In this document: positions 18,106 through 35,254 of the stretch, piece by piece
How the letters are laid out: the number at the start of each line of letters is the position of its first letter
Position numbering within the stretch: position 1 is the first letter of the stretch
IMG/VR virus record: IMGVR_UViG_3300001605_000013
Span: 62,001 to 99,559 of that record
From: an uncultured virus (IMG/VR IMGVR_UViG_3300001605_000013)
Taxonomy: Duplodnaviria; Heunggongvirae; Uroviricota; Caudoviricetes
Reading direction: 5' to 3' (one strand)
Length of the DNA stretch: 37,559 nucleotides
Made by a program: the position numbers and the translations under genes
Notes under the pieces: model-generated
What the model saw: only the letters and a program-made list of their open reading frames with translations
Database searches by the model: none
Told to the model about the DNA's origin: nothing

Positions 18106-18420
18106 ATGCATGATGAACTATGCCCTATGGTAAATGAAGATCCCAAAGACTGTAATATATGTAGTCTCATTAGAATGGTTCGTATAGATGAAAAGGACAA
18201 ATTTAGCGGGGATGAAGAATGGGATAGACAATTAGTATCAGAAGAATACTATAACAAAGGATTTGCTGAGGGATCAAAAAGTGTAGTAAAAACTGAGACA
18301 AAAATTGAGGGAGTCCCACTAACTACTATTCATAAATATATCCTGGATGGGATAGCTCAGAGGAACATGAAAGAGACAGAAGCCTTATATAAACTATATG
18401 TTTCCCTTGGTGGAAAATAA
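18106..18420 (+). CDS. hypothetical protein
   Basis: GAGG RBS before MHDELCP; last rightward gene. Confidence 0.7.
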   Translation: MHDELCPMVNEDPKDCNICSLIRMVRIDEKDKFSGDEEWDRQLVSEEYYNKGFAEGSKSVVKTETKIEGVPLTTIHKYILDGIAQRNMKETEALYKLYVSLGGK

Positions 18421-18818
18421 CGGGGTAGATGGTGGATACCCTATCCTTCTCATATATATATAAACATAAAGCATGGTTACATATACCTACAAGTAGTCTT
18501 ATATTTATATATGAATTAGATACACCAGACGATGATTATATACATAAGGTTATCTTTGAGAGACCATAGGAATGCTATCGCATTTCAGGTGAAAACCCCT
18601 CAGATTGGCTTATATGGTCATTAAAATACCCTTTGGAAGTATGATTATGTGTATATATATGTTACTGTGATATTTGCAGTGGAGTGAAATGGTTTGAAAT
18701 GGAGAGATATGGGTAATTGGGTATATATAATAAAACAAAAACTCATTGTTTTTTATTTAAAACACCCCCCAAATCCCCACAAACCAGTTCAGAATATAAT
18801 AAAATATATATAAAACCA

Positions 18819-19610
18819 GGCGAAATATACAATCCTTCGTAATACCTATTGGTTCTTATATGCCATATATGATATATACATTACTATTATGTATATAAGG
18901 AATATTATAAAGATAGGATGTCTATTGGTCCCTGGCAAGTTGGGGAATATGTTGTAGCTGCCCCCAAAGCTAGACCAACCCTTTCTATAGGATCATAGTC
19001 TGTAGATGTATATAGAGAACCTAATGCAAAGTTTCCTCCACTACCTATAGCTACTTCTTTTATTTCAGCTACCCCCCAGTCATCTGTATTGAATTCAAAT
19101 AATCTACCCCCACACCCTATAACAAAATCTGTAGAATCATCATCTTTCGATGATCCATGTGTATCTAAAATAGATTTATAATTCTCTACAACATCCATTC
19201 GTAATACTTTATATATATCATCTGTCTTTTTAATCGGGGGTAGCTCTATAAAATCAAACAACTGTCCATTACCTAAACTACCTGCATAACCATATATCCA
19301 TTCATTCTTTATAACTACCTTTGGTTGTAACATAGATAATATAGAGCTATCATCTGATACCCCCCTGTCCCCACCTATATAGATAACATCATCGTGTACT
19401 ATTCCTACAATAACTGTCATTTATGTATAACACTCATTTCTTCATAGACATCTATATATTTCTTTACAACATAACCATCTGGTGTTTTAACTAACTTCCA
19501 GAAAGTAAAGTACACTTATGTATTATATCCTAATGCTGGCGATTTTTCAAGTCCTTCGTAATACCTTTTTACAAAAACGTGGGCGATTTTGAGTGCCCTT
19601 CGTAATACCT
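18819..19610. repeat. three copies of GGCGA-N10-CCTTCGTAATACCT
   Basis: 18819-18847, 19538-19566, 19582-19610. Confidence 0.85.
18905..19420 (-). CDS. HslV/proteasome-beta-like Ntn peptidase
   Basis: N-terminal Thr (MTVIVG), GGDR, GYAGS, AIGSGGNFALGSL. Confidence 0.88.
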   Translation of the reverse strand: MTVIVGIVHDDVIYIGGDRGVSDDSSILSMLQPKVVIKNEWIYGYAGSLGNGQLFDFIELPPIKKTDDIYKVLRMDVVENYKSILDTHGSSKDDDSTDFVIGCGGRLFEFNTDDWGVAEIKEVAIGSGGNFALGSLYTSTDYDPIERVGLALGAATTYSPTCQGPIDILSL

Positions 19611-19737
19611 TTTTTAATAAAATAGTTTGAAATCCGGCCCGCTTTTTCACAAGACGGAAGCACATGAAACCAAAATGAAAAACAAAGCCACCAGGAATAT
19701 CACGCCAGCGAATAAAGCTGTTAGTGCATCATCACCT

Positions 19738-21730
19738 TTACTCATCCTCTCCACCATCATCATCTAGTTCACCTTCAAGACGTAGCATTTCATCAAGGGT
19801 CTGATACATTGGAACAGGGTATGGATTGACAGCAAGCATAGAACAAAGTTCTTCCCATGTCTGAGTAATCATCTCACTACCCTCTGTTGTCAGAGTAACA
19901 AGATTTTGATTTACCATGTAAGCAAGCGGTAGTCCAATGTCGCAACGCGATATGTAATCACGCCAAGACTTTGGCTGAGATTCATCTTGACCATAAAAAT
20001 ACCAAATGGCAGATAGGATTGCAATTCGCTTAGAAAAGGGTGTCTTGTCCATCTACATCTCCTGAGAAAGGGTTTTCTGAATAATGAATGATTGAGTCTG
20101 CTAACACTAATGCGTTTTTGCGTACCTGCCGTGTGGACAAGTTTACAACGTGAAAGCCAAGGTAGTCAATGTCAGGAACTGAATAACGACCATCAGCAAT
20201 TAGATCAACAATTTTCTGTGCTATTCTCTCCATAGTTTTCCCATCATAGCAGAAAGGGGGCAGAGTGTCAATACCCTACCCCCTCTCATATTGACATTAC
20301 CGACTTGCGATTGCGGGAGCCTTACGCAGACCTGTAAGATTTACAGAATCAACAAACTTCCCATTCTCATCACGAATGACAACTCGTTCCTGCTTACCAA
20401 AGCGAGTGTTCCACTGCTCAAGGTAGGTGTACTTCTTTGCCATGTTATTCTCCTTAGTTAGGTGTAACTGATATATTTTACTGTATTTATTAGAGATTGT
20501 CAACACTATCTTGGATGGAGTCAATCATTTCAACCAGACCCCAAAGCTTAAATCTCTTGTCCTGCTCTTCAATATCCCAGATGGATTCCAGGAGCAATTG
20601 CTTTTGTTCTGACAATAGATCCATGTCTAGTTTCATGTCAACTAACATTATTCTTCATTTTCCTCTTCTTCAACAACATCAACATCAAAAGGTTCTGACC
20701 ACTCTTCATAGAAACAAACTTCACCTGATTCTACATATGAAGTCATTTCAGAAATTGCATTAGCCCACGCTTCATCTGCAACGATAACGAGGCGAACAGC
20801 CTTTACAGTTTTCATTATCCATCCCCTTGCTTAGTTATCAACTGTATCAGTCTAGTGATCTATTACACGGCTGTCAAGTACTTAGCAAACTTATTTATGA
20901 ATGAATCAAATTGCATAACAAACTTAGGCTTAGCATCTATGTCAAACTTTATATCAAATGAATGAGGCAAAAGTCTAACAGTCTGAGTCTTGAAACTTAC
21001 AACGGGAACAGAATGTTCAGAGTCACAAAAATAAGTAGTAAGCCCCCAACCAGTTTCTTGTTTCCACTCATTGTCAATGATAGTGGAGACAGCAATTCTT
21101 GTTGCGTATGACTCATCATTCCAACGTGGGCGTGCAGTTTCAATGGCGGTAGCCAAAGTGTTTAGCATACCCTCGCCTGCCCAATGCCCATACAGATAGA
21201 TAGCATTTCCATCTTCTTGCTCAAATACAAATGTCGCACGATCACCCACAGTTACACTTCCTCCATGTCAATAGATTCTTGAATTTCAGTACCAGTATGA
21301 ATAACGTCTTCGAGGTCAAAGTCTTGTGCCCAAAACTTCTCCTTGGCTTCCTCAAAAGAATCAGCCTGAATGGTGATGTTGTACCAATCTTCCTCAGTGA
21401 AACTAATCATATAATTAGGCATTCTTATTCCCTTGCTAGTAGTTATATGCGGAGCCTACCATATTTATATTTAGTTGTCAAGTGTTAGTCCTCTAACCAT
21501 TCCCCCAAATTTATTTCTTCCTCTACTAGACAATCGTGACAGTAAAGGTATGCACCACTATCTTCAACATGCTCTTCACTATCCTTCTCACCTTCTACAG
21601 CATACAGGTGTCCTTTAATTTCAACTATCTCTGTGATATATCTTGTATCAACAGTTGAGACAATAGAGATAGATAAAGAATGATCTCTATGTGATGCCAT
21701 GAATTCTTGTGTACCGTCAAAATTTGCCAT
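19738..21730 (-). CDS. small leftward hypotheticals (19738-20052, 20030-20233, 20297-20443, ~20650-20816, 20863-21249, 21252-21422, 21485-21730)
   Basis: ORFs with GGAG-type RBS; 20863 ORF has MGDRA...YLYGHWAG. Confidence 0.7.
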
Positions 21731-21788
21731 GCTATCTCCCTTATTAGAGTATGAGGATAACCTATCATCTTTGTGTACCGATGTCAAG

Positions 21789-21862
21789 TGGGGCATGTTG
21801 GACTCGAACCAACGACTACCGAATTATGAGTTCGGGGCTCTAACCAGCTGAGCTAATGCCCC
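21789..21862 (-). tRNA. tRNA with CAT anticodon (probably Ile2; Met not excluded)
   Basis: GGGGCAT/ATGCCCC acceptor; CCGAA-CTCATAA-TTCGG; no initiator features. Confidence 0.9.
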
Positions 21863-22028
21863 CAGGGATATTAAATAATAAAGTAAAACATCCCAAGGAA
21901 TATGAGGACGATAAAGAATAAGCCAACCATTCCAAAACCAACCTCTGCTTTATTGGTCATACGCATAGTTGGGTCTTGGCTCATCCTTCCCATATGCCTA
22001 CCCGCCTTGTATGATCTTCCCATTACCA

Positions 22029-25000
22029 TTATGCTTTCACCCTTCGCTGCTGAGAAACCATGCCAGATACTGTATGGTAGGTTACGTTTACTTTCTCGTA
22101 TTCTATACCCCCAGTTGGTGCGCTGTCAAGTAGGTCACGCATTAGGGCAGCAAGAATAGTGTCTGCTTCCTCTTCTGTGAGTGTTAGGTTTATCATTGAA
22201 CACCTTCCCACCTAGTAAACCCAATGTCATAGACAAAATTATTTACTTTCATCCATGCTGTCTCACCATAGAATAACTTAGAATAATTTTTCTTATTGAC
22301 ATCATGAGGCTTAACAACTACCTTGTAAAAATCAGGGTATGGGTAACCATGAAAAACCTCTACGTCACAGTTAAAATCTTCACCCTTCCAATGATGACAG
22401 TTAGAATCTTCATAGAGCAAGTCCCACTCCTTGACCTGCTTGACGCTAGGACGCTTGCTTGGATACAAAGGCGCGGTACTCATTATATTATTCCTCTTCC
22501 TCAAACAGATTGGCTTCTCTTATCTTATAGATTAAATACTCTGACACATCTTCTGATCCTGCGTCATTCTGTTCCATAGAGGATACAATATCATTCCATT
22601 GGTCAGTTGTCAATTTATCCTCGCCATACATTTCTGTAATATCAGAATCCCACCACATGATATATATTTCTTCATCTGGCTTATATGCCTGGAGCATTTT
22701 AATTGCTTCGCTAACCTTCATTCTTCCTCCTCAACTTCAACCTCAATAACTTCCCCGCCATTAACAAAAACAGATTCAGTTTCTAAATATCTTCCATTAT
22801 GAATTACCCACATAAACTGTTCATCTGTTGTCATGTCGTCCCAGTCTTCTGGGAGTTTGTCTATTACATGTGTGTTGTACTCTATATATTCTGCTGATTG
22901 GTGAACAATAACTTTCATGCTTTCTCCAATGCTAGGTGATATTCCTCGTATTCTAACAGAGTATGGATAACAAAGTCAAGCCCTTGTGCCTTAAGAATAT
23001 CCATATATAGTTCTATCTCATTCCCACTTTCTAGGGTACGAACATAGTTTAAGTCTTGTGAAATTTCTTTATACACATCAAAATAAGTAGTCGCACCATC
23101 ACTACACTCATAGACATGGATCATTAGAATGCCTCCTCGTTCTCATGGACTACAAAGTCTATGTCACTATCTATAAGTTCGTCAAGGTATTTTTGATATT
23201 CTTTTTCTGATGAAAGATCAAATAAGAATTCATCTGACCAGGGCTCACCAATGACAGACTTGAATACCTCCCAAAACCTATGCTCAAGTACATCATTCTC
23301 ACCATAGACATTGCACTCATAGATATGAATCATAGACTATTCCCATTCTCATCCTGAAATATAAGATTATTAGTTCCAAAGTAATCTGCTGAATCTTCTT
23401 CAATATAACCCATGACTGCTTCAATGTCAATGTCTGAGTCTTCCATACCCGAATACTTTAGAGCCTCAACAACATGCTCCACGGTATAGGTCATAACAGC
23501 CATAACGTTGATTCTTTCAGGCAGGGCTTCCATAGTTATACCTCCATTGCTGCTCAGAATAATCAAACTCAATGTCAAATAGTTCTAATTGTTCTTCCAT
23601 CACACCTCCTGCGGTATTGGAAAGGTATCAACAATGTATCCTAGCGTACTGTATAGTTCTGCGTCAAGTAGTTCCTCCTCACTACCCTCTTCTGGATGAA
23701 ACCATCCGTCATACCCAAAATCAGGATCGTTAGATCTGTCAAGAGAAAAGATAGACCCTCCAGGAAAATAAGATGTAGGATCTCCTTCGACAAACCACTT
23801 CTTTAGTTCTGTGTCATATCCAATTACAAGATGGTGTTGCATTAGTCCTCCCACTCATAGATGTTTACGTCTGATACTCCAAACACGATCTGACCTTCTT
23901 CTATCATTGCCTCTACCATAGACTTTGCCTCTTCTAGGTTTTCAGCGGCAACCCCAACGATAGAAACAGATCCATCTATTACAAATGAATACTCTTGCAT
24001 TATGCCTCCTCTGCTGAAAATACATTGACCTCAGTAAACTCATAGGTGATGCCTTCGGAGATAATTTCTGTGGTATCTAGAAATAATTCTTCTGCCATAG
24101 CCTTTGCATCTTCTGGATTGTCTGCCTCAATAAGAAAACTATCTTCCCATGTAGCAGTTAAATAAGTTTGATACAACATTACGCCTCCTGAAAGTTGTAG
24201 TAGAACCTTACACCATTAACATCTGAAAAGTCAAGGGTTCCACGAACTCCATCTGACTTACGCTCAACTACACAAAGATACATAGCAAAGCCAAGAACAT
24301 TGTAGTGCTCCAACATTTGATCTTTAGTTAATCCATCACTCTCAAATGTAAGCATATTCCTCTTCCTCTTCCTCATCACCATAGTCATAGGCTACAATCT
24401 CAAAGAACTCTTCATCTTTCCAAGGAACCTCGCAAACAAAATAGCCTAATCTGTTTACATATGAGTAACCATTTACAAGGATACCCTTTCCATCTACCTC
24501 AACTAATGTCCAGACAAAATTTTCGGGGGTAGCCTCAACAAAATCTACTTCCTCCCCATATGTCTCAAACATAGTTCCATTCCAAGATGCCCCATCAGGA
24601 TCTATGTGATTAGTCTTTGGTTGATAAATACTCCACCATTCATCTTCAGTCATTATAGCCACCACCTATCTTCATGCTTGATCTTGACATCATCTTGTTC
24701 TATTTCTATTTCCCAACCATCTCCATTAGAAACATTAAAGTCAAATGATATTTGATCTTCTAAGTCCTCAATGTCTTGACCAATTGCAATCTCAACTTCG
24801 CCACGGTATGTAACAACAACATCCACAGCATAACGCTTAGTAAGACCAATGTCAAGTATCTCAGCAACATCATATAGTTCTGTTGATAGAGACTTATCAG
24901 ACACTAGGTAGGTCTCTAAGATGTATTCTTTCACATTGTCAATTTTTTCATTAAGTTGATTAAGACTACATCTCTTTAGATAAAGTTCATTATCCAATCT

Positions 25001-25075
25001 TTCTACATCACGCATAAGAGTGTTTATCTTGATAGACAATTCATCGCGGGTAGGCTCATAAATATCTCCAACCAT
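22029..25075 (-). CDS. run of about 13 small, mostly acidic hypotheticals (includes 23842-24000 and 24000-24179, absent from ORF track)
   Basis: Tightly coupled ORFs with GGAGG RBSs, downstream of a TTGACA-18-TAGGGT promoter near 25103-25133. Confidence 0.75.
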
Positions 25076-25301
25076 GACATACCTTTCATTAGTAGATAGC
25101 CTTACCCTATCTCATAAACATAGAAATGTCAAGGGTTTTAGCGAATTTTAGCGATTTTTCTTAATGCTTCGTAAATGAATTTTTATTTATTATTATATAG
25201 AAAAAATGGTCCGGCCCGCAAAAACCGTTGGTATGCAACAGCTTTTGAGAGGTGAGCAGTTTTACATCATGGGGTGCAAAATAGGGTGCTATAATTATAG
25301 T

Positions 25302-25694
25302 ATGAAGATTTGCATTAGGTGTCACAAGAAGTTATCACTAGAAAAATTTGGAAAACATCCAACGTCAAAGGATGGATATAGGAATCAGTGCAATCACTGT
25401 CGATATGAACTACGAAAAGAAAGACCTACATATCAAAAACAAGTTAGACAATATAGGTACGGAATAACTCAAGAAGAATACGATAAAATTTTAAAATCTC
25501 AAAACAACTGTTGTGCCATATGCAAAATAGAATTTTATAAAACTCCGCACATAGATCATTGTCATGAAACTAAAATTGTTAGAGGGCTTTTATGTTCCAA
25601 TTGTAATAGTGGAATAGGATTATTGGGTGACGACCCCCGTAGACTGAGAGCCGCCACCCAATACCTAGAGATTACGCAAAAGCAATCTCTTTGA
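25302..25694 (+). CDS. endonuclease VII-family (free-standing homing-type) nuclease
   Basis: CAIC, HIDHCH...VRGLLCSNCNSGIG; opposite strand to neighbours; TATAAT 6 bp before ATG. Confidence 0.9.
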   Translation: MKICIRCHKKLSLEKFGKHPTSKDGYRNQCNHCRYELRKERPTYQKQVRQYRYGITQEEYDKILKSQNNCCAICKIEFYKTPHIDHCHETKIVRGLLCSNCNSGIGLLGDDPRRLRAATQYLEITQKQSL

Positions 25695-26667
25695 CAATGG
25701 ACATGATTTTATTTTTTGAGGCATTGGTAGCAGCATCAAAACCTGATGCAGCAGCGAGAACAGATTCTGCATTACCACCGCGAGGGTTACGATACCAGTC
25801 AAGACGCTCTGTAATTGCATTCATAGCACCCCACGCGGTTCCCTTGATATTGACACATGTCTCACCAAAATAAATATCGTTGAGAGTGTCAATCTTGGTC
25901 TCCCACTTTGTCATAGCACCCTTTACATCTTCCTCTGGCTTTGCATAGACAGCGGTGATGATGTCAAAGAATTGCTTGTCAGAGATTTCCTTAGCGATCA
26001 TCTCGTTTGCAATTTTGTCGAATGCGTCAAGGTAGGTGTTAGCCATACCCAATGCCTCGCGTGCCGCAGTAACCTTGCCCTGCAAAGTCTGAGTGTGACG
26101 AATGCGGAATGATTGCTTTGCACCACGACCCTTGGAACCAACAGCCATGTTGAGAGTGTTCTGGCAGACAACACGGACAGGTGTAACGCTTGCCTGAATT
26201 GCAAGTGAACCATCATGTGATGTGTGAACCAAAAGATAGTTATTGATTTTGTCACCACGACCCTTGGGATCTAGGTTGGTCTCACGATTGAGAGCGAGGG
26301 AACCAAAAACAACAGTGCCGTTTTTGATTGAGCCAGCGGTCTCCCACTGTCCACCATCAAGAAGGTTATCGCCAAACTGAAAAAGTTCTTCGTTTTGCAA
26401 TACCTTGTAACGCTCACCCACAACACCAAGCACATCATTCTCACCGTCAAAAGGATTGGTGCGAACGGTAGCAAAGTAATCGCGGTGTGATCGACCTGGG
26501 AGTGCTAATTCTTCCACACGAACATCCCAACCTGAGAGGTGTGCTAGACTAAGCATTTCAGAAGTGCTTACGGGTTCGTCAATGACAGTTCCAAGACCAT
26601 GCCAAGCGGGTTGGCGCAAGGAAGCAAAGGAAGCCATTTCGCCATATTGTTCTAACATGTGAGCCAT
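25672..26667 (-). CDS. DUF932 family phage/plasmid protein
   Basis: PAWHGLG, LGVVGERYKVLQNEELF, WETAGS, SHDGS, TPVRVVCQNT, IRHT. Confidence 0.93.
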   Translation of the reverse strand: MAHMLEQYGEMASFASLRQPAWHGLGTVIDEPVSTSEMLSLAHLSGWDVRVEELALPGRSHRDYFATVRTNPFDGENDVLGVVGERYKVLQNEELFQFGDNLLDGGQWETAGSIKNGTVVFGSLALNRETNLDPKGRGDKINNYLLVHTSHDGSLAIQASVTPVRVVCQNTLNMAVGSKGRGAKQSFRIRHTQTLQGKVTAAREALGMANTYLDAFDKIANEMIAKEISDKQFFDIITAVYAKPEEDVKGAMTKWETKIDTLNDIYFGETCVNIKGTAWGAMNAITERLDWYRNPRGGNAESVLAAASGFDAATNASKNKIMSIVKEIAFA

Positions 26668-26828
26668 GTGATTTTCCAATCTCTAGTAGTTGATGTGATA
26701 ACAGTATCAGAATAAGGAAGCATTGTCAATAGATAAATAAGAAAACTAGAGGTATTTTGGTGTGGTCTTAATCACATCGTAAAAGCTTGACAAAAGTGAA
26801 AAAACGGGCCGGGCCCAAAAATTGAGAG

Positions 26829-26874
26829 TCCCCCTAGGGAGCAAGGGTGGGGGGTATGCTCAACCTAGAGGGAC
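26829..26874 (-). terminator. long GC-rich hairpin after tRNA-Asp (terminator or processing stem)
   Basis: GTCCCTCTAGG...CCTAGGGGGAC; only a weak U tail. Confidence 0.5.
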
Positions 26875-26876
26875 AG

Positions 26877-26949
26877 CGATTCTGATGGGATTCGAACCCA
26901 CGACCTCCACCGTGACAGGGTGGCGAGCACTCCGCTGCTCTACAGAACC
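26877..26949 (-). tRNA. tRNA-Asp(GTC), copy 1
   Basis: CCACC-CTGTCAC-GGTGG; acceptor GGTTCTG/CAGAATC. Confidence 0.93.
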
Positions 26950-27006
26950 ATTGTATTATTTTTTATGTAGCACAGGATCTCATGAGTCCTCTCCTTTCAC
27001 TACTCG

Positions 27007-27074
27007 CACCTCGTCTAGGAATTGAACCTAGCAAGACAAGTTTTGGAGGCTCGTCTGTACCCAGTACCCAAGGC
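27007..27074 (-). tRNA. atypical tRNA-Trp(CCA) with reduced D arm
   Basis: T arm CTAGG-TTCAATT-CCTAG, loop CTCCAAA, acceptor GCCTTG/CGAGGT, 68 nt. Confidence 0.65.
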
Positions 27075-27176
27075 TAGAATGTGAAGGTATCTAGGCTTAC
27101 TCCTTCACAATTGACTTGCAGCGAGACAAAACATTTTTTGCCATATCTCTATTATGTTAGTACACTAGACTGCAAG

Positions 27177-27257
27177 TGGGGAAGCGAGTCGAACGCATGA
27201 ATCCCTGATTCACACTTGCCGCAGCCCAATGGCTTTGTCTAGGTCGCATATCCCCAA
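27177..27257 (-). ncRNA. T-loop-containing structured RNA with no recognisable anticodon arm
   Basis: TGGGGA/TCCCCA closing stem, AGCC/GGCT and TGAATC/GATTCA hairpins, GCG-TTCGACT-CGC. Confidence 0.55.
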
Positions 27258-27290
27258 GTCACTATTTAGTTAGAGTTTTATTTTACCAGA

Positions 27291-27437
27291 CTACTTGACG
27301 GTAGTCCAGCGAGTGCCGTTGTCAGTCATCAGACGCAGACGGACGGAACCCGAAGGATTCTGGACGATCTCCTCAATCGTTCCCTGCACACCGCTCTTGA
27401 GGGTGGTGAACTGTGAGCCAACAGTGAGTGTAGACAT
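27291..27437 (-). CDS. 48-aa beta-rich protein (not in ORF track)
   Basis: MSTLTVGSQFTTLKSGVQGTIEEI...RWTTVK*; GAAAGGAAG RBS; TTGACA-18-TAAGGT promoter at ~27477-27506. Confidence 0.8.
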   Translation of the reverse strand: MSTLTVGSQFTTLKSGVQGTIEEIVQNPSGSVRLRLMTDNGTRWTTVK

Positions 27438-27533
27438 TTTGCTTCCTTTCGATTGTTTGTTTGTTGTTATGGTAGAACCTTATCAGATAGGTGGGGTACT
27501 TGTCAAGGACTTTCCCCCACCGTTATCAAATTG

Positions 27534-27833
27534 TTATGAAACTTTTGTAACATCTTCAGGTCTAGATAGATGCCAGTAATATAACTCGCCGTCTATTACT
27601 TTGCTATCCCACCAAGCATTTTTACGCCACGCCCAATAGTGACTATCTTTGTGGCACTTAGTTTGATTCAACTCTTCCCAAGAATAAGTTATTCCAGAGG
27701 GTACTGATATTTTCCATCTATCTTGATAGAATGTTTTTCCTGATACAGTCCAACAGTTCAAACATTCAACAACTATGTTTGCAGTTGGCTCATCAATAAT
27801 TCTTTTTCTATCATATTTGTTTGGAATAATCAC
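27534..27833 (-). CDS. hypothetical protein
   Basis: 99 aa, GAGGGAG RBS. Confidence 0.65.
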   Translation of the reverse strand: MIIPNKYDRKRIIDEPTANIVVECLNCWTVSGKTFYQDRWKISVPSGITYSWEELNQTKCHKDSHYWAWRKNAWWDSKVIDGELYYWHLSRPEDVTKVS

Positions 27834-27856
27834 TCTCCCTCATCATTATCAAATTG

Positions 27857-28342
27857 TTACCAAGAGGCTTGGTAGTAGATTTCCCATTCCCAGTTATCCT
27901 CAGGAATAACAGAGAGAACATGGTCAATCATTTTTATGGTATCGCTTAGATCTTCCATGTACCATTCGTCAATCTCACTACTGCCAAAGAAGAATCCTTG
28001 GGTAGGGGGAAGAACTTCCCCAGCCATAGCAGGCTGAGAAACAGCGGCCTTGCAGAGATCACGCAACTCTACCAATTTCTCACGGGGTACAGGAATCTCT
28101 TGGCACTCATCTACACCACCAGCCAATTCATTAACGAACCAACCATGAATAGCATTAGCCTTGCGCCAGTATCCAACGGGATAAGAAACAGAGATACCAG
28201 CAAATTGAGAATACTTAGTTAGTCCTTCTAACCCTGACATATTGACGAGGGTAGAAAATTCTGGAACCTCTGTGCGAGAGTCACCCTTGTAATTATGTTG
28301 ACTCACATACTTGCGAGCATTGAGATACATGTCCAAACCCAT
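27857..28342 (-). CDS. conserved phage hypothetical protein
   Basis: MGLDMYL...YWRKANAIHGWF...GFFFGS...YYQASW. Confidence 0.88.
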   Translation of the reverse strand: MGLDMYLNARKYVSQHNYKGDSRTEVPEFSTLVNMSGLEGLTKYSQFAGISVSYPVGYWRKANAIHGWFVNELAGGVDECQEIPVPREKLVELRDLCKAAVSQPAMAGEVLPPTQGFFFGSSEIDEWYMEDLSDTIKMIDHVLSVIPEDNWEWEIYYQASW

Positions 28343-28433
28343 TTTGGAACCCACCTTTCCTTTGTTGTATATACACACCCTATCACAGGGGTCTGACATT
28401 TGTCAATAGTTTATTTAGCTTGTTATCAAACTG

Positions 28434-28631
28434 TTATAATTCAGTAAGCAAGGCAAATCGTTTTGTAGCCTCTGCCTCAACATGACGGCGGTATCCTTCT
28501 TCATCCACCAAAACAAAACGGTAGTCAAGACTATCCCCATCTTCAATATCTGTAATACGATATATTGCACCCTGGATAGTAATTTGATCCCCCACTTCAA
28601 GAGAATAGGCTTCCATGTTTTCAGTAGTCAT
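28434..28631 (-). CDS. small SH3/KOW-like protein
   Basis: AYSLEVGDQI...YRITDIE. Confidence 0.7.
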   Translation of the reverse strand: MTTENMEAYSLEVGDQITIQGAIYRITDIEDGDSLDYRFVLVDEEGYRRHVEAEATKRFALLTEL

Positions 28632-29116
28632 TTGATTCCTTCTTCCAACGATTATTTTCACGCTTGCGTATTACCTTAGCAGATTCACGAGGGTAGCAGC
28701 AAGTACACCCCTTATGACCATTTCTTGCTATGTTTTTATTTGATCTAATCATGAATGAAACATATCATAGTTTTTTATGTTTGTCAAGAGCTTTGGCGAG
28801 GTTTTTAGCGATTTCTTAATTGTTTTCTTAATCAAGATGTTTCCAGAAAAAGGGGGGCCGGATTTTTTCCTCAAAAAACCCTTTAATACCAACAGCTTTT
28901 CACACCCAATACAAACTAGCAAAATATATAGCAATACCAATAAGAATTAGCCCGACAATTCCCTTTATTACCACCATTTATTTTCCCGTCTGATTATTTA
29001 TTTCATTATACAAATTTATTATTGTTGTCATGTCAAAGTCGCCATGTGGAGCGTTATGACTTTTTAGAATTTCTAGCAATGCCTCCCACGCTTGCGAGGG
29101 TAGTGTTACAGATATG

Positions 29117-29674
29117 TCATGCATGATTACCCCTAACGACAATCCAGATAAGTGCCTGCGCGGTGCGAGGCGTGATACCAAATTCTTTTGCAACATTGCG
29201 AACAGAATCCGCGAGTGTATTGTATTGTGTTTTATTTACACCCTTGGATGCATCAAGTCCCGCAGCACGAATCATCCAAACGTCAATCACGACAGCGTTA
29301 GGGTCACCTGCAATGGCGCGTGCAAACGCATTAGTCTTTTGACCATTGAGTGCATCGAAACCTAATTCCATTGCAGACTCTGCCATGCGATAGTTATTCT
29401 GTAAACCGCTAACGGGCTTGCCCATTGAGAATGCGAGAGCCTTAGCAACATTGGATGACCAACGCTCACGAGGTGAGAATGCGCTAACGATAGATGCGCC
29501 AACCTCAAGCGATACGCCTAAGTTTTCTGCAACGTCTTCCGCAACTTCCTGCGCCTCGTGATACCATACAGAGGCTTGCTCAAGTTGTCCAAAGTTGGCT
29601 TGCAAGATGCATTGCATGTAGGCATATTCAGAAACCTGGGACAGGACAGCGGGGGTATCAGTAAGTGTGTTCAT
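29117..29674 (-). CDS. phage protein with HhH DNA-glycosylase-like motifs
   Basis: WY, SAFSPRERWSSN, GQKTNAF, VVIDVW, QALIW; leaderless TTGACA/TAGGTT promoter. Confidence 0.7.
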   Translation of the reverse strand: MNTLTDTPAVLSQVSEYAYMQCILQANFGQLEQASVWYHEAQEVAEDVAENLGVSLEVGASIVSAFSPRERWSSNVAKALAFSMGKPVSGLQNNYRMAESAMELGFDALNGQKTNAFARAIAGDPNAVVIDVWMIRAAGLDASKGVNKTQYNTLADSVRNVAKEFGITPRTAQALIWIVVRGNHA

Positions 29675-29691
29675 GTATTTAACCTATCATA

Positions 29692-29832
29692 TTAGTCAGA
29701 GAATGTCAAGCTTTTGTGCTTATTTTTTCTAGTATATTTTTTCTTGTTGGCATGGCGAGAGGCAGCACTAGAACGCCTCAATTCTTGCCAATAGCGAATT
29801 TCCTCAGAGGTTCGCTTTCGATTCTTTATCAT
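29692..29832 (-). CDS. 46-aa highly basic peptide (not in ORF track)
   Basis: MIKNRKRTSEEIRYWQELRRSSAASRHANKKKYTRKNKHKSLTFSD*; leaderless after TAGGAT. Confidence 0.7.
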   Translation of the reverse strand: MIKNRKRTSEEIRYWQELRRSSAASRHANKKKYTRKNKHKSLTFSD

Positions 29833-30549
29833 GTAATTATCCTAACACATGGGTCTGACATTTAGGTGGCAAAATATGAAAATTAGGCAGCAAAAACAGT
29901 GTGTCTTAAATCACTTCTTAAAGACTTGACATTTGTGAAAAATCGTGCCGGGCCGCGAAAAACCGTTGGTATATAAGGGTTTTTTGGTGTATCTCACGAC
30001 TAGCAAAATCCCTTTATTCCCAACTATTTTTCAGCGATGCAAAGTTCGCAAGGCAGCTGTTAAAAACTCCTTTGCTACCAACGGATTTTCAATATTCACC
30101 ATTGCACGTTTGATATTATTTGAGATGTGAAACTCTTTGAGTGTTAGTTCTTTGTTAGTCTTCATCTAACATCTCCCCGCACTTAGAACAAAAAACATCT
30201 TCACCTTCCCAATATGCAGGACGGTTGCAATGTTGGAAACTGATATCCAAACTTTCTGTCATTGTCCAATCATAGATAGTCAACTAAATCACCGTCCATT
30301 ATTTCACTAACGTCTACACCTTTTGCTTCTGCAATTGCTTCCCACAATTCTTCCTCGGAAAAAATTCCATCTTCGGGAAGGTAGTCAAGATAGTCTTTCA
30401 TGCTAACCCACTTTCATAGTTTTTAATTTCATTTCTAATGTTGTCAAGGTTTGCAACTAACATCATTTCATTGCAATACAAACAAACTTCGTCCCACATG
30501 TTTGATCGAGGGTTTTCAGTTGATTCACACATTTCACATACAAAGTCGT

Positions 30550-30753
30550 TCACACTGCACCCCTAAAAAATAGATAAGTCATATTGTGATTGTCAATTCT
30601 GATACCTTTGTGTTCCATTGGATAGACGTTGCAACCTTCTGACATATCCTCTATCAGTTGCTCCCCCGCAATATCCTCAGCAACTAGATACACTTCATCG
30701 CTCAATGGTATAAGTGTCCCAGTTCCCTGGTGGTATATAAATAGTTTTTTCAT
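30550..30753 (-). CDS. hypothetical protein within a cluster of small ORFs (~30250-31130)
   Basis: GGAGG RBS, 67 aa. Confidence 0.65.
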   Translation of the reverse strand: MKKLFIYHQGTGTLIPLSDEVYLVAEDIAGEQLIEDMSEGCNVYPMEHKGIRIDNHNMTYLFFRGAV

Positions 30754-31154
30754 TAGTCCTCCTGATTATCTAGAGCATGATCAATGGTGTCAATAACGTG
30801 ATCAAAGTATGCGAACTTCTCGCTATCCCTTGCGTCTGTCAGGATCATGATAACAGTATCCCAATCTGATCGGGGCATAGAAACTTTTACCATTAGAATG
30901 GAACCTCCACAAATTGTGTTTTACCAATATACAGTGTGCCATCATTGGCATGAAATACCTTGGATTGATCGAAGGCATTTTCCTCAAAGGTTAGATAAAT
31001 ATCTAGCCAAGCGTGCTCAAAGTCATTTGACATTTTCATTTCGATTCCTCTCGACATAGTGGCCAATGCAATGGCCGTGGGGTTGGATTCTCTCGCCAGT
31101 TCTGGCATGTTTCGCATGTTTTCATGGTTTCACCTTAGCATAGGGGTCTGACAT

Positions 31155-31230
31155 TGGCGACCCTGATGGGATTCGAACCCACGACCTCCACCGTGACAGG
31201 GTGGCGAGCACTCCGCTGCTCTACAGGGCC
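31155..31230 (-). tRNA. tRNA-Asp(GTC), copy 2, CCA encoded
   Basis: Same body as copy 1; acceptor GGCCCTG/CAGGGTC. Confidence 0.95.
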
Positions 31231-31237
31231 AAGGTAC

Positions 31238-31438
31238 TTAGCGGCAAGGTTGCTGCCAAGCGTTCCAACTACCGATCTCACAATCGATGCAACGGTAGCA
31301 GTCATCAACTACACCAATACGGTGTGAGGCATCATTAGCCTGACGAACACTTTCAGGGATAGCCTGAAGGCGAGGCTTTTCGATAGTCTGATACCATTCT
31401 CCGTAGGAGAGGTGCATGTATTCCATTCGATTTGTCAT
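31238..31438 (-). CDS. small Cys-containing protein
   Basis: 66 aa, CYRCIDC; GAAAGG RBS behind a box promoter. Confidence 0.75.
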   Translation of the reverse strand: MTNRMEYMHLSYGEWYQTIEKPRLQAIPESVRQANDASHRIGVVDDCYRCIDCEIGSWNAWQQPCR

Positions 31439-31488
31439 TTTTCTAACCTTTCTTTCTATGCCCTAAGGCTATCATAGGGGTCTGACAT

Positions 31489-31635
31489 TTACACCAAGGA
31501 TAGGTGCTTGCCAGACTCTCCGATAGTTTGTACATCAAGCACACGCCCAAAGAATGTGGGGTGCTCGGTTGGGTCACCTTCGGTTTCTACACGCACGGTC
31601 TGACCATTGGTAAGTTTTACGAGGTAAACGAACAT
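31489..31635 (-). CDS. 48-aa protein, paralog A
   Basis: MFVYLVKLTNGQTVRVETEGDPTEHPTFFGRVLDVQTIGESGKHLSLV*. Confidence 0.85.
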   Translation of the reverse strand: MFVYLVKLTNGQTVRVETEGDPTEHPTFFGRVLDVQTIGESGKHLSLV

Positions 31636-31667
31636 TTTATTTCCTAACTTTTCGTTTCTTTCTATGT

Positions 31668-31859
31668 CTAAAGCCTAGCACGGGGGTCTGACATTGGGGG
31701 GTAGATTTGTTCAGAAACAATGCGCTCACGCCAGATAGTTCTGTGCTCTGGCTCGATATGTCCCCGCTCATGTACTCGTGCATATTCTGCCTTCTCAAGC
31801 GTGTCATATGAAGCCGCAAAGTCTCCGTCAAGAGAAACAAAGTAGGTCCATTTATTCAT
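31668..31859 (-). CDS. small leaderless hypothetical protein
   Basis: TAGGAT-6 bp-ATG; 63 aa. Confidence 0.7.
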   Translation of the reverse strand: MNKWTYFVSLDGDFAASYDTLEKAEYARVHERGHIEPEHRTIWRERIVSEQIYPPMSDPRARL

Positions 31860-31887
31860 GATGAAATCCTAGCACTAGGGTCTGACA

Positions 31888-32034
31888 TTACACCAAAGAC
31901 AGGTGCTTGCCATACTCTCCAATAGTTTGGACATCAAGCACTCGACCAAAGAAGGTAGGGTGCTCGGTTGGGTCACCTGCGGTTTCTACACGCACGGTCT
32001 GACCATTGGTAAGGGTAACTAGGTAAATAAACAT
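31888..32034 (-). CDS. 48-aa protein, paralog B
   Basis: MFIYLVTLTNGQTVRVETAGDPTEHPTFFGRVLDVQTIGEYGKHLSLV*. Confidence 0.85.
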   Translation of the reverse strand: MFIYLVTLTNGQTVRVETAGDPTEHPTFFGRVLDVQTIGEYGKHLSLV

Positions 32035-32142
32035 TCTTTATCCTTTCGATCTAGTAATTAGATCCTAACACAGGGGTCTGACATTGGAAGCGTTTACAAT
32101 CCCATATGTCCGATTTTGTTTTATAACAGTTTGGTAACAAAG

Positions 32143-32286
32143 TTATCCACATATCCACAGAAGTTATCCACAAGACGAAAAGTTGTTTATTTGCAAGGGT
32201 TTTTTAGGCTAAAAAGTTGTTGCAATATAAGGGTTTTCAGGGTTTTCCACATAACTACATAAGAGCTGTGGATAACCTGTGGAAAA
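32143..32286. promoter_or_regulatory. DnaA-box cluster 1 (3 perfect, 3 one-mismatch)
   Basis: TTATCCACA 32143 and 32164; TGTGGATAA 32267; variants at 32151, 32243, 32278. Confidence 0.8.
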
Positions 32287-32417
32287 CGGGCCGGGCTGCA
32301 AAATCCCTTTAATACCAACAACTTTTAGACGTTTACTGCATAGACAGCACAACCAATTACAAAAACAAAAACCAAAAATAATGAAGGCACAAAAAACTCC
32401 TTTAGTATCAACAACTT

Positions 32418-33255
32418 TTAGGCGCGGTGGTTATCCAGGAACTGATCTATCAAATTATTAGGAACCCAAGGGTACACACATGTATCTGATTCAGCAGGTG
32501 ATCCATCATGATACTCTGCAAACTCTGGAATGATTTGTGTTACCCATTCATTATCTTTGAAGAATGCTAATTCACTTTGTGTTTTGCTAGAGTAAGTTCC
32601 ATGACCCACAACAACAGAAACAGTATCTGCTAACGCATGATGAATTTTTATTTTCATGATTAACCTTCTAAGTATTGAGCGGTAGCGGAAACAAAATCAA
32701 TCGCGTTAGGTTTGCGATCAAATGCAAACGTGAATGCATCTAGTTCGTTGTTTAGATAGTTGTATACGTTGGCGGTATGCGAACCGTTCCAAACAATTTG
32801 CAGGGTAGGTGTATTGATTTGCATTTCAGACCTCCAACAATTCGAATGATTTGATAGAACTACCTGCGTTAATAACGCCTTGCAAAGTTGCAACGATCAT
32901 TTCTGATTCTGTTGCCAATTCTGGTAGGGGGTGGGTCATGGTGTGTTCACCATAGACACTGACAGATGTTACCTTGAGAGATTTCATTTTTTTTCCTTTG
33001 TTTGTTTAAGTTGATTATATAGTGAGGGTCTGACATTTATGCCCTCATTAGGGGGTATCTAGATAACAGTTAGATAACGGTTATCGTTACGTTTTCCCAA
33101 ACCTCTTGGGCGCAAGTGGAGCAACGCTCACACATTGGCGTAGTTTGGACAGTACCGCTAGACAGTACGCGAGAGACATTCTCTATCGCATTATGACGAG
33201 TAGCAGATGAGAGGCATAGGAAGCCATTGCACTTGATTTTGTTTACAGTGATCAT
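32418..33255 (-). CDS. small hypotheticals (32418-32657, 32660-~32825, 33070-33255 zinc-binding)
   Basis: ORFs with RBS; 33070 ORF has CxxxxC and CxxCxxC. Confidence 0.65.
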
Positions 33256-33594
33256 TTTATGATCCTTTCTTTTGTTTCTTTATCTTGTAGCCCTAGGCTA
33301 TCATAGTTTGTTTAGTTTGTCAAGTTTTTGGGGGTGTGAGTTAGATCACTTTTTTAGATCTTCGTTGCACTTGTAGCAAACCCGATTTACGTTGGTAACA
33401 TGACCTTTACCGTCTAGGCAGAACCCATTAGGTGCTAGTACTTTACCTTCTAGTGTGAAACTGTTGAACATTTTATTTCTTCTTTCTTTCTAACTTGTTT
33501 ATCTTTATGAGTGTAACTCTAGCACACAATTACCAAAAAGTCAAGAGACAAAACGGACATTTAGATGAACAATAGATGAACAACAATTCACAAG

Positions 33595-33692
33595 TTATCC
33601 ACAAGATAGGATGTCAAATCGACACGCCGATTTTAGGGAAATTGTTACATAAGCGTAACCTTAACATAAGCCTGTGGATAACCTGTGGAAAA
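33595..33692. promoter_or_regulatory. DnaA-box cluster 2
   Basis: TTATCCACA 33595; TGTGGATAA 33673; TGTGGAAAA 33684. Confidence 0.8.
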
Positions 33693-33779
33693 CTGTCCGG
33701 CCTCGAAAATCCCTTTAATACCAACAACTTTTCGGTGTATCTCACGACTAGCAAAAAGTTGTTTAGTACCAACGGTTTT

Positions 33780-33986
33780 TTATGGTGTCCAAGTATAGGG
33801 GTAGTCTCCATTAGGTAGTGCATCAAACGAACAGCCTGCATCTAATGCGGCTTGCACGTTATTGCTTGCTTGAAATTTTGCACACTGTTCTTGTGCGTCC
33901 ATCATTCCCGCTACTCCCATGATTGCAACCATGAAAGACAACAGAGCAACGATAGCAACGCGCTCACCTCGTTTAGTTAGATTCAC
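33780..33986 (-). CDS. small single-TM protein
   Basis: GTG start, MNLTKRGERVAIVALLSFMVAIMG. Confidence 0.7.
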   Translation of the reverse strand: MNLTKRGERVAIVALLSFMVAIMGVAGMMDAQEQCAKFQASNNVQAALDAGCSFDALPNGDYPYTWTP

Positions 33987-33987
33987 T

Positions 33988-34152
33988 TCACACCCCCACT
34001 GCTTGCATGAATCGAACGCGATCAAATTTCGGATTATCGTCTGCAAAATAATCTGCAAACTCTTTTGCAATTGCTTGCACCACATCACTAGATTCATCTA
34101 GGTATTCATTTAGAATTTCAGCGGTAACTACATAGTCTTTGCGTGTCATCAT
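33988..34152 (-). CDS. 54-aa conserved phage protein (not in ORF track)
   Basis: MMTRKDYVVTAEIL...DDNPKFDRVRFMQAVGV*; AAGGA RBS. Confidence 0.8.
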   Translation of the reverse strand: MMTRKDYVVTAEILNEYLDESSDVVQAIAKEFADYFADDNPKFDRVRFMQAVGV

Positions 34153-34326
34153 TTTACTGTCCTTTGTTAGTTTTCTTCTTTGTTGAATTCAATTTCTTCT
34201 TGGACTAGTCTAATGACATATCCAAGGATAGTTCCTGTAAGAATAAAGATTGCGACATCTAATAGCATTTCATTTCTCATTTCTTTTTGTTGATTAGATA
34301 TTACCATGGGGGGTATGACAGTGGAG

Positions 34327-34446
34327 TTATGGGCGTACCCACTTTCCATTGACGTTGTTCCATTCGCCACAACCTGGGCACTCCATTGCAACGATAGCAG
34401 GGGCAGGCTTGCCATGACCTTGGCATGGTGTCTTTCGTGTTTTCAT
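34327..34446 (-). CDS. 39-aa Cys-containing peptide
   Basis: MKTRKTPCQGHGKP...ECPGCGEW...VRP*; purine-rich leader. Confidence 0.5.
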   Translation of the reverse strand: MKTRKTPCQGHGKPAPAIVAMECPGCGEWNNVNGKWVRP

Positions 34447-34479
34447 TTTCTATCTCTTTTCTTTCTAGTTTGTGGGGGT

Positions 34480-34546
34480 GAGAGGAGCGATTATTTGCTA
34501 GGCTCATGTCTTTCGACCTTATTTGCTAGGCTCACGCTCTACTCTC
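34480..34546 (-). ncRNA. two-fold symmetric structured RNA
   Basis: Outer stem, two copies of UGAGCCUAGCAAAUAA, inner GUC-GAAA-GAC hairpin; just downstream of a promoter. Confidence 0.7.
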
Positions 34547-34619
34547 TATTTATTTGTAGTCTTAGACTATCATAGGGGTCTGACATTTCAGCCCTTATTT
34601 GAGGGGTGTTTGGTAACGA

Positions 34620-34832
34620 TTAGATAACGGTTACCAGATCAGTGAAGGTGTATCCACTACCGTTAGGGTAGACAACCTTGATGGTGATTCCATCATTGAC
34701 ATTGTGGAAGGCTTCTACCACAGTACCCTCGCCTCTCCATGAGGCTAGGACAGTGCGACCGATCCACTCATGAGCGATAGGACGGGGGGCTATGTGAGAG
34801 CCAACGATTTTTCTAGCGGTTTGGAGATTCAT
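34620..34832 (-). CDS. small SH3-like protein, first leftward gene
   Basis: 70 aa, IGRTV...GEGTVVE. Confidence 0.7.
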   Translation of the reverse strand: MNLQTARKIVGSHIAPRPIAHEWIGRTVLASWRGEGTVVEAFHNVNDGITIKVVYPNGSGYTFTDLVTVI

Positions 34833-35037
34833 TTTCTTACCTAACTTTCTTTCTTACTTTGTTTTATCTTATGGCGACAGTCTAGCACGGGGGTCTGACA
34901 TTGACCGATAATAGGACACATTAGGCAACGGTATCCGCAGATATGACTAGATAAATCAACGAATACAGTTGTATGTATNGGTAATAAAAAATTCTTCAGT
35001 CGACTTTTGATTACTTTGATACGAATATCGTTGATAG

Positions 35038-35057
35038 TTATCCACAGGTTATTCACA
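35038..35057. promoter_or_regulatory. DnaA-box pair 3, beside an AT-rich tract
   Basis: TTATCCACA-GG-TTATTCACA. Confidence 0.75.
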
Positions 35058-35254
35058 AACCAGCGAGGTGGTCACACTATTATAAATCGGACATTTAGTA
35101 CAAAATGCGTACCGTACATTTCCGTAAAATATTAAATTTTACTCAAAACTGAAAATACAAAAATTTTAAACTTTTACCAAATATGAAAATCGAAGGTATA
35201 CAAAAATATTAAACTTTTGTCAAATGTAAAATATTTTTATTGTATAATATATAT

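Follow-up and report, generated by a model that had tools for sequence, protein, structure and literature searches.

Lineage-specific GC cores in repeated early-region cassettes hold the only CCGG sites of an uncultured tailed phage genome

The DNA analyzed here is a 37,559-base stretch (the window) that spans positions 62001 to 99559 of the 99,559-bp genome of an uncultured virus of the class Caudoviricetes (IMG/VR record IMGVR_UViG_3300001605_000013). The tetranucleotide CCGG occurs only seven times in this genome, always within the window and always at the centre of a short GC-only core that belongs to a cassette repeated between leftward early genes. Elsewhere in the genome the word is purged. 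Related contigs conserve both cassette and core, and sister lineages carry other GC-rich words in place of the core. We consider it roughly an even bet (a probability of about 0.5) that restriction avoidance removes CCGG from this genome and that the core is maintained by a sequence-specific reader, likely a regulator of early transcription.

An earlier sequence-only reading of the window had listed seven CCGG sites and proposed that the tetramer was otherwise purged. An exact count returned the same seven starts (19634, 25211, 26809, 28858, 29948, 32291 and 33697), and the rest of the genome added none. Seven copies in the whole genome compare with 54.9 expected under a second-order Markov model, an observed-to-expected ratio (O/E) of 0.127 and a depletion with a Poisson probability of 4.9e-16. 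This ratio is the lowest among the 256 tetramers across the whole genome, the runner-up being GCGC at 0.55, and the k-mer count thus bears the purge out. In the window itself, dinucleotide-preserving shuffles yielded a mean of 36.65 copies (standard deviation 5.06), with at least 7 in 100 of 100 shuffles. The CCG triplets of the window are followed by A 25 times, by C 35 times and by T 43 times; the 7 triplets followed by G are the seven sites themselves, exactly as had been claimed. Neighbouring sites lie 1090-5577 bp apart and all seven are confined to 14% of the genome.

Several other short words are missing as well, including GGATCC (0 vs 20.5 expected), GCATGC (0 vs 9.4), AGGCCT (0 vs 8.3) and CGWCG (CGACG plus CGTCG, 0 vs 18), and TACGTA is reduced to one copy against 8.2 expected. 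Depletion of the other GC-only palindromes is far milder, with 49 copies seen of 89 expected for GCGC, 63 of 111 for GGCC and 42 of 43 for CGCG. Avoidance of short palindromes that act as restriction sites is an established property of phage genomes. The present case resembles it in the strong depletion of several short palindromes and in a set of purged words that varies between related lineages; it differs in that the purged word is retained at fixed regulatory sites, as also happens with GCGC and CGCG in relatives. Because other palindromes are absent too, and because relatives purge differing 4-bp palindromes by lineage, the loss of CCGG looks like the usual signature of restriction avoidance in hosts with differing enzymes, restriction being its probable cause. 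The suggestion of the sequence-only reading that host restriction sites had been purged gains weight from the same absences.

The seven surviving sites share one architecture. As had been noticed from the sequence, each is a short GC island bracketed by A/T runs: the CCGG is the centre of a GC-only run of 6-12 bases, and in the direction of the genes T runs flank this core on both sides. Between positions 18400 and 35300 of the window, all noncoding GC-only runs of at least 7 bases contain CCGG (6/6, as judged by us), in addition to the 6-base run at 33697. Read in gene direction, the cassette consists of the end of the upstream gene, often a 27-nt element termed boxA (AAAAGTTGTTGGTATTAAAGGGATTTT and variants) whose first base adjoins the stop codon, and then the GC core between two T runs; in this lineage the core conforms to GG(G/C)CCGG(A/C)C. 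Downstream of the core, modules M1-M5 carry one or two TTACGAAG or TTAAGAA boxes together with a C-rich box, and in M1-M4 a sigma70-like promoter follows 70-83 nt past CCGG. In M6 and M7 a pair of DnaA-box-like nonamers, TTTTCCACA-GG-TTATCCACA, replaces the part made of boxes and promoter. The modules, some of which border open reading frames (ORFs) of very small size, are as follows.

19634..19642, minus strand: M1 core, GCGGGCCGGAT in gene direction, past the stop of the 19738-20052 gene and upstream of an HslV-like gene.
19522..19613, minus strand: promoter-proximal part of M1, with two TTACGAAGG boxes (19598-19605 and 19554-19561) and an ATCGCC box after each.
19550-19522, minus strand: M1 promoter, sigma70-like TTGAAA-17-TATAAT, adjoining the second TTACGAAGG box.
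25211..25219, minus strand: M2 core, GCGGGCCGGAC in gene direction, 91 nt upstream of the likely start (25302) of an opposite-strand endonuclease VII gene.
25104..25250, minus strand: rest of M2, with a boxA-variant hairpin (about 25220-25247), a TTACGAAG box (25167-25174) and ATCGCT repeats.
TTGACA (25132-25127)-17-TAGGGT (25109-25104), minus strand: M2 promoter, before the 24653-25075 gene.
26805..26816, minus strand: M3 core, GGGCCCGGCCCG in gene direction, 60 nt past tRNA-Asp (26876-26949).
26701..26804, minus strand: rest of M3, with TGTCAA exactly 16 nt after CCGG (plus-strand TTGACA at 26787-26792).
26775-26782, minus strand: M3 box TTACGATG, then TTAAGACCACAC.
TTGACA (26729-26724)-17-TACTGT (26706-26701), minus strand: M3 promoter, before the DUF932 gene.
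28852..28861, minus strand: M4 core, TCCGGCCCCCC in gene direction.
28759..28901, minus strand: rest of M4, in which boxA (28875-28900) begins at the stop of a 25-codon hydrophobic ORF.
Downstream in M4, minus strand: two TTAAGAA boxes, ATCGCT/CTCGCC and the promoter TTGACA-17-TATGTT (28787-28759).
29944..29957, minus strand: M5 core, CGCGGCCCGGCACG in gene direction.
29899..30032, minus strand: rest of M5, with upstream inverted boxA arms (30000-30032 and 29957-29986) around a 19-nt loop (29986-30004).
Downstream in M5, minus strand: TGTCAA 16 nt after CCGG (plus-strand TTGACA at 29926-29931), then two TTAAGA boxes.
32287..32296, minus strand: M6 core, GCCCGGCCCG in gene direction.
32267..32326, minus strand: rest of M6, with boxA upstream (32300-32326) and the DnaA-box-like pair TTTTCCACA-GG-TTATCCACA directly downstream (32286-32267).
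33693..33705, minus strand: M7 core, CGAGGCCGGACAG in gene direction.
33673..33781, minus strand: rest of M7, with boxA copies (33752-33780 and 33706-33732) around a 19-nt loop (33734-33752).
33692-33673, minus strand: DnaA-box-like pair downstream in M7.

The placement of all sites between leftward genes, another claim of the sequence-only reading, has to be qualified. A crude longest-ORF map puts five of the seven inside ORF calls. Four of these calls are 60-80-aa frames of the repeated module itself, and such frames matched neither PHROGs (0/5) nor Pfam (0/5). The fifth is a 5' extension of the endonuclease VII gene, whose family match is complete from the internal ATG at 25302. An exact 15-mer scan of viral contigs for boxA gave 46 loci with one match each, which we take as chance level. 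The 19-nt loop between the inverted boxA arms is identical in M5 and M7, and the long hairpins stand right after stop codons. Two tiny and very hydrophobic ORFs on the minus strand, at 28900-28977 (25 codons) and 32325-32390 (21 codons), are bounded by boxA, and a similar one is present in the related locus L007.

Related contigs establish that the CCGG core outlasts its surroundings. Relatives were gathered through the DUF7178 protein encoded beside M4 and M5, which identified 15 viral-contig loci with 58-83% identity. CCGG is low in all 15 and absent from 10 of them, where each would be expected to contain 9-16 copies. Loci L007, L008, L009 and L018 carry modules of the same kind with 5, 5, 6 and 3 CCGG sites, respectively; the two sites of L017 are of another kind. 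Orthologous positions were set by the flanking genes (the DUF7178 gene, tRNA-Asp, the DUF932 gene and a 140-aa gene), and at the four resulting inter-gene positions the CCGG core was present in 20 of 20 cases across the window and these four loci, with variable adjacent bases. The marker protein of the four contigs is merely 76-83% identical to that of the window, and gene content between the cassettes varies among relatives as the cassettes remain. Conservation of the sites against changing flanks and neighbours, the check that the earlier reading had called for, is thus what the four contigs display.

Two further viral records extend the pattern. In G003 (94.7 kb, classed with end repeats) 7 of the 8 CCGG sites in the 40 kb examined are module cores, and in G001 6 of 7 sites in 38 kb are module-like cores. 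When the whole records were scanned, SSCCGGMM was found only at 60.4-69.4 kb of G003 (6 hits) and only at 67.8-76.4 kb of G001 (4 hits). A set of 28 modules, ascertained through CCGG, showed one core polarity in gene direction, roughly GG(G/C)-CCGG-(A/C)C(C): the G-rich side lies 5' of CCGG, with G at position -2 in 21 modules, C at +5 in 16 and C or A at +4 in 26.

In the other sister lineages the same cassette is built around GGGGCGCCCC, GCCGCGCCCC, TGCGCCCC or CCCGAGCC in place of the CCGG core. No core was chosen beforehand: these alternatives are the GC-rich 8-mers that occur most often in each locus. The core GGGGCGC(C/T)CC is found in L005, L006 and L016, GCCGCGCCCC in L017 and L010, TGCGCCCC in L011, L013 and L014, and CCCGAGCC in L012, L015 and L019. 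All lineages share a TTACGAA box, followed after about 12 nt by a C-rich box, and the core is found in both orientations in L017 and in the L011 group. Relatives also place TTATCCACAGG directly beside their own cores. The proposal that the seven sites are a functional signal consequently needs a division: CCGG is the invariant centre of a repeated intergenic element in its own lineage, yet it is not universal, given that the cores of sister lineages lack it.

The purged words differ by lineage as well, and comprise AGCT, GGCC, CGCG, CATG, GCGC and TGCA across the loci. AGCT is gone or nearly so in L008 (0 seen of 30 expected), L009 (1 of 26) and L018 (0 of 21), compared with 250 of 378 in the genome studied here (G000) and 19 of 33 in L007. 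Neither L011 nor L013 has any GGCC, CGCG or CATG. In L011, L013 and L014 all GCGC copies lie in cores (11/11 each), and in L010 the same holds for GCGC (10/10) and CGCG (10/10). A GC-only 8-10-mer can hardly avoid all four GC-only words, and a purged word can therefore persist in cores alone. L015 and L019 lack all four GC-only palindromes, and their core contains an A and avoids all four. Across seven loci the type of core does not track protein similarity, and cores therefore change or are exchanged quickly.

A cultured relative places the cassette in a known genome. In Streptomyces phage Karimac (131.9 kb; cluster BE, Stanwilliamsviridae) the first 12 kb consist of leftward small genes, and the CCGG-containing 10-mer GCCGCCCCGG has all of its 24 copies in two terminal repeats (0.7-10.1 kb and 120.0-129.4 kb), 22 of them on the gene strand; the reversed control pattern gave 0. 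Of 16 intergenic stretches inspected, 11 contain a TTCG-loop GC hairpin, GCCGCCCCGG, AAAAGATCTTG or a close variant, and TTGACN...TAGACT, the core being inverted in two. Within the 12.6-kb repeat there are 7 TTACGA(A/T) boxes, 6 of them in the first 660 bp of the genome. Karimac and the window share a Karimac-type early cassette, with a repeated GC core confined to leftward early gaps (7 cores within 19634-33705 of the window), a cassette behind each small early gene whose 10-bp core contains CCGG and is mostly in one orientation, a core set between a hairpin and a TTGACN-TAGACT promoter in Karimac, and TTACGA(A/T) boxes. The core genes agree with this likeness (DnaE about 53%, large terminase about 54% and DUF932 54% identity); the DUF932 counterpart in Karimac is gp3, which lies inside the terminal repeat. 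The leftward early block is homologous to the terminally repeated early block of Karimac. The two phages differ in that AAAAGATCTTG follows the Karimac core, that this core lies about 21 nt from the -35 (70-83 nt in the present phage), and that a strong TTCG-loop hairpin stands where the present phage has boxA. Karimac also has no purge of CCGG, with 150 copies in its first 50 kb against 145.5 expected. Because Karimac has a CCGG-containing core without the purge, purge and signal have to be kept apart, and the lineage studied here is where they meet. A limited literature search found no description of the cassette, and a term look-up in PMC5764925 gave none either.

The geometry of the module is rigid. 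A -35-like TTGACA points at the core from either side in 16 of the 28 modules, about 16-17 nt off: TGTCAA follows CCGG at 16 nt in 8 modules and at 17 nt in 1, and TTGACA precedes it at 16-17 nt in 6 modules and at 13 nt in 1. TTA[CA]GA is found within 60 nt past the core in 25 of 28. We considered whether TTGACA-16/17-CCGG could be a working promoter and rejected it, the GC core occupying the place of the -10. A hairpin or terminator formed by the core was likewise rejected, the 28 core folds having a mean of -2.55 kcal/mol against -2.51 kcal/mol for shuffles. Seven of the 28 folds reach -5 kcal/mol or lower, and two of those seven have a T-rich tail. Terminator-like sites are not enriched in the region (9 vs 10.4 expected), and when the seven modules were folded as RNA their z-scores lay between -1.6 and +1.2. 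Hairpins or boxA elements do lie just upstream of the core in M2, M4, M5 and M7.

These observations are best explained by a regulatory reading. Selection against short palindromes cut by the host, as in all relatives, would remove CCGG from every gene, and the leftward early block is punctuated by a repeated control cassette in whose core alone CCGG survives. The promoter of this cassette is of the sigma70/HrdB type. The core would be read sequence-specifically, as double-stranded DNA, by a lineage-specific protein, most likely a phage-encoded regulator acting on all early transcription units in shut-off, activation or insulation. Since 16 of 28 modules have the -35-like TTGACA directed towards the core, this reader may cooperate with RNA polymerase docked at that hexamer. 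Both the protein and its role are what we infer from the pattern of retention. With GCGC, GGCC and CGCG so much less depleted in this genome, a GC core free of CCGG would cost nothing, yet CCGG is kept at every orthologous position, and sequence-specific reading is therefore preferred over GC content as such.

One comparison for such a regulator is with the stoperators of cluster A mycobacteriophages, the sites of the L5 gp71 repressor. In both systems a short site recurs many times in brief gaps between genes, with a single orientation to transcription and a lineage-specific sequence. They differ in consensus, in the restriction of the present sites to the early block where stoperators are spread over the genome, and in that no repressor or integrase family was found among the 35, 32 and 80 ORFs scanned here (many small ORFs match nothing), the present phage appearing lytic.

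Several points weigh against a regulator of this kind. PHROG and Pfam scans of the overlapping sets of 35, 32 and 80 ORFs assigned nothing in the early block to a repressor-like, sigma or RNA polymerase family; most ORFs there have no match in either collection. Similarly, a co-variation screen of 13 ortholog groups in 7 loci revealed no protein that follows core type, with within-type minus between-type identity ranging from -9 to +10 points. The distance from core to -35, about 70-83 nt, is long for a classical activator or operator, and the distance from core to TTACGA differs by lineage: it is 16-20 nt in L009 and 35-36 nt in the M2 set, against 26 nt in the window and most other loci. Seven CCGG sites would also be a real cost if the host cuts CCGG. 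Moreover, the invariance of CCGG over the 28 modules is partly circular, the positional test (20/20) being its unbiased part, and the identical counts of L005 and L016 may mean that one virus was sampled twice.

If the core is read as proposed, the system is a clear natural case of restriction avoidance colliding with a cis-regulatory code. One cassette design runs through phages of about 90-130 kb that resemble actinobacteriophages, with a GC core of which at least six versions exist, differing by lineage. The sole copies of a purged word sit in the core in several lineages (CCGG here, GCGC and CGCG in relatives), and where all four GC-only palindromes are purged the core is free of them as well (CCCGAGCC). 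This suggests that a regulatory word, presumably along with its reader, may be replaced in concert under pressure from host restriction. The presence of the cassette in cultured, non-pathogenic Streptomyces phages makes reader and role findable at the bench, and the cores mark the early or terminal-repeat block and its unit boundaries in uncultured genomes of the family.

An unlikely alternative is that nothing reads the core specifically and that it acts as a physical GC clamp. A stiff, hard-to-melt block flanked by T runs, placed just past the hairpin of the upstream gene, would slow or insulate transcription, its identical copies within a genome being maintained by concerted evolution. The flanks are indeed rich in T (at positions -10 to -6, 10-16 of the 28 modules have T, and at +8 to +13, 11-17 of them do), the upstream hairpins and boxA elements of M2, M4, M5 and M7 have a counterpart in the strong hairpin directly before the Karimac core, and the independence of core type from protein similarity is what cassette exchange would produce. 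A clamp sits less well with cores that fold no better than shuffles, with the expected number of terminator-like sites and with the unremarkable module z-scores. This lineage could also drop CCGG from a mere clamp free of charge, yet it keeps the word at 20 of 20 positions while neighbouring bases drift.

We consider it distinctly improbable that the cores mark a programmed strand break or a stop in DNA entry, two of the mechanisms suggested by the sequence-only reading, with a phage enzyme cutting or nicking them, or with cores and DnaA-box pairs holding the DNA during stepwise entry as in T5. The confinement of the Karimac cores to terminal repeats (24/24), the homology of the window block to that repeat and the single polarity of the cores relative to genes would all fit. 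So would the DnaA-box-like nonamers, of which pairs adjoin M6 and M7 and none lies beside M1-M5, with further clusters at 32143-32172, 33595 and 35038-35057. Perfect copies of TTATCCACA number 6 of 7 in the early region for the whole genome, and relaxed boxes 14 of 20. Precedents exist: one study of T5-like phages describes paired DnaA boxes in inverted repeats within the untranslated part of the left terminal repeat as a proposed injection stop (10.1101/866236), and specific single-strand nicks in T5 and BF23 are described in PMC10644984. The likeness to T5 comprises a terminally repeated early region (in the present phage by homology), untranslated repeats, inverted repeats and close DnaA-box pairs, 2 nt apart here and 3 nt apart in T5. 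The differences are that T5 has a single complex region where the present phage has a cassette before each gene, and that the DnaA-box pairs accompany M6 and M7 alone. As many as seven to twelve sites, every one of them lying past a gene end and ahead of a promoter, suit transcription better than a stop or nick during entry, and the DnaA-box cluster is missing from the Karimac repeat (1 relaxed box in 12.6 kb).

A fuller version of this idea, less probable still, would make the early block a terminal repeat whose cores are nicked or cut by a lineage-specific phage nuclease and whose DnaA-box pairs tether the entering DNA in staged entry or processing, core and enzyme changing together when restriction makes a core costly. 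A cutter that needs CCGG alone was rejected separately, on two grounds: outside the Karimac cores CCGG is as frequent as expected, and some lineages purge the word although their own core lacks it. In the window, DnaA-box-like clusters occupy 32143-32286, 33595-33692 and 35038-35057, often as pairs 2-4 nt apart.

The cassettes could, in place of this, be mainly recombination joints, short homologies for swaps of early genes in which the core is the best-conserved stretch. We hold this to be a poor prospect as a full account, and compatible with, not opposed to, the regulatory reading. Its appeal lies in the differing gene content between persistent cassettes, in a contig of run X7 that joins 29986 to 33671 (M5 to M7) and skips 3684 bases, a weak joint whose shorter side is 21 letters, and in the promoter-stem-loop cassettes (PeSLs) of T4-type phages, which PMC2839356 and PMC4122927 describe as composite promoter-terminator motifs that mediate shuffling. 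Like PeSLs, the present elements are repeated composite regulatory cassettes around small variable early genes and stay in place while genes change, with promoters downstream of M1-M4 and varying gene content between cassettes, the stem-loop being inconsistent here. PeSLs differ in belonging to another phage family and promoter type, and they are not known to have a lineage-specific GC core or a tie to a restriction word that has been purged. Homologous exchange needs more than the 10 bp of a core, and shuffling as a consequence of repeated regulatory cassettes leaves the retention of the core sequence unexplained. A contig of run X5 joins 25111 to 32119, skipping 7.0 kb; the shorter sides of the module-to-module joints measure 21-30 letters and are weak.

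That the core is a signal read by the host, either a species-specific Chi-like word acting against an exonuclease at the entering end or a site of a host regulator or methyltransferase that differs as hosts differ, appears very improbable to us. The cores are short, GC-rich and mostly co-oriented words near a putative DNA end, and lineages with different cores also purge different palindromes, which suggests different hosts. However, the CCGG lineage shares its core despite differing purge profiles (AGCT is absent or rare in L008, L009 and L018 and not in G000 or L007), L017 and the L011 group carry their cores in both orientations, and a Chi-like word needs no fixed place between gene end and promoter. 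Finally, the view that the seven sites have no function, being chance survivors or copies of one recently duplicated segment, is hardly credible and already contradicted: some modules are related copies, with 92% identity over 61 nt between M6 and M7 and 77% over 56 nt between M3 and M5, but the depletion has a probability of about 5e-16 with all 7 sites in one kind of element, the core flanks of M6 and M7 differ while CCGG stays, and CCGG is conserved at orthologous positions in four contigs with a marker protein only 76-83% identical.

The genome that carries the cassettes is of siphovirus type and encodes a portal, a protease, a major head protein, a 1962-aa tape measure protein and a large terminase. 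Its replication and nucleotide genes include a DnaE-type polymerase, a primase, a helicase, a UvsX-like recombinase, ribonucleotide reductase, thymidylate synthase and dCMP deaminase; a WhiB-family protein and a DUF732 protein are also encoded. Polymerase and terminase are about 53-54% identical to their counterparts in Streptomyces phages of 120-133 kb, and promoters have the form TTGACA-17-TAGnnT, the -10 being of Streptomyces type. The host is probably an actinobacterium. The source is a metagenome, and near relatives were found in wastewater runs, with smaller shares in soil and freshwater runs; none of the 20 runs listed is an RNA run. The assembly is a single contig without end repeats, in which leftward genes fill 18.9-35.1 kb of the window. 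A near-identity search of 20 kb against 50,697 phage records returned a tRNA match alone, and an Rfam scan of the window recovered 8 tRNAs and nothing else.

Other features of the window deserve mention. The segment 1655-11856 encodes five glycosyltransferases, a Nol-like carbamoyltransferase and a small SAM methyltransferase, with five tRNAs interspersed, and close to it are the dCMP deaminase (509-916) and WhiB-like (1114-1398) genes. The endonuclease VII / HNH-like gene at 25302-25694 lies on the plus strand, opposite to the leftward early block that surrounds it and beside M2, and has the appearance of a homing-type endonuclease that was inserted there; an HNH gene also stands at the repeat edge in Karimac. 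Two copies of tRNA-Asp(GTC), at 26876-26949 and 31155-31230, are 93% alike, and a 157-nt direct duplication (88%; 31489-31645 and 31888-32044) spans a small early gene, both being signs of cassette duplication. Past the last leftward gene, at 18805-18850, there is a third TTACGAAGG...TTCGCC promoter-like unit without a GC core or an obvious downstream gene, followed by a 480-bp AT-rich noncoding stretch (18421-18904). At the other end of the block, three tandem 29-nt repeats (35126-35231), each promoter-like and with starts 34 and 43 nt apart, occupy the gap from which the leftward early block and the rightward genes diverge.

A second repeated element shares the early block. On the minus strand at 28374-34903, the box AATGTCAGACCCC occurs in 11 copies just upstream of small early genes, followed about 5 nt on by TGnTAGnnT, and relatives carry ATGTCGGTGGTC where the window has this box. 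The 10-mer GTCAGACCCC, with at most 1 mismatch, has 11 hits in the whole 99.6-kb genome, all of them at 28374-34903. The spacing of TGTCAG.. plus 8 nt plus TAnnnT matches what we take to be the PafBC/RecA-NDp promoter type. PafBC acts through a non-palindromic RecA-NDp motif (PMC6789036).

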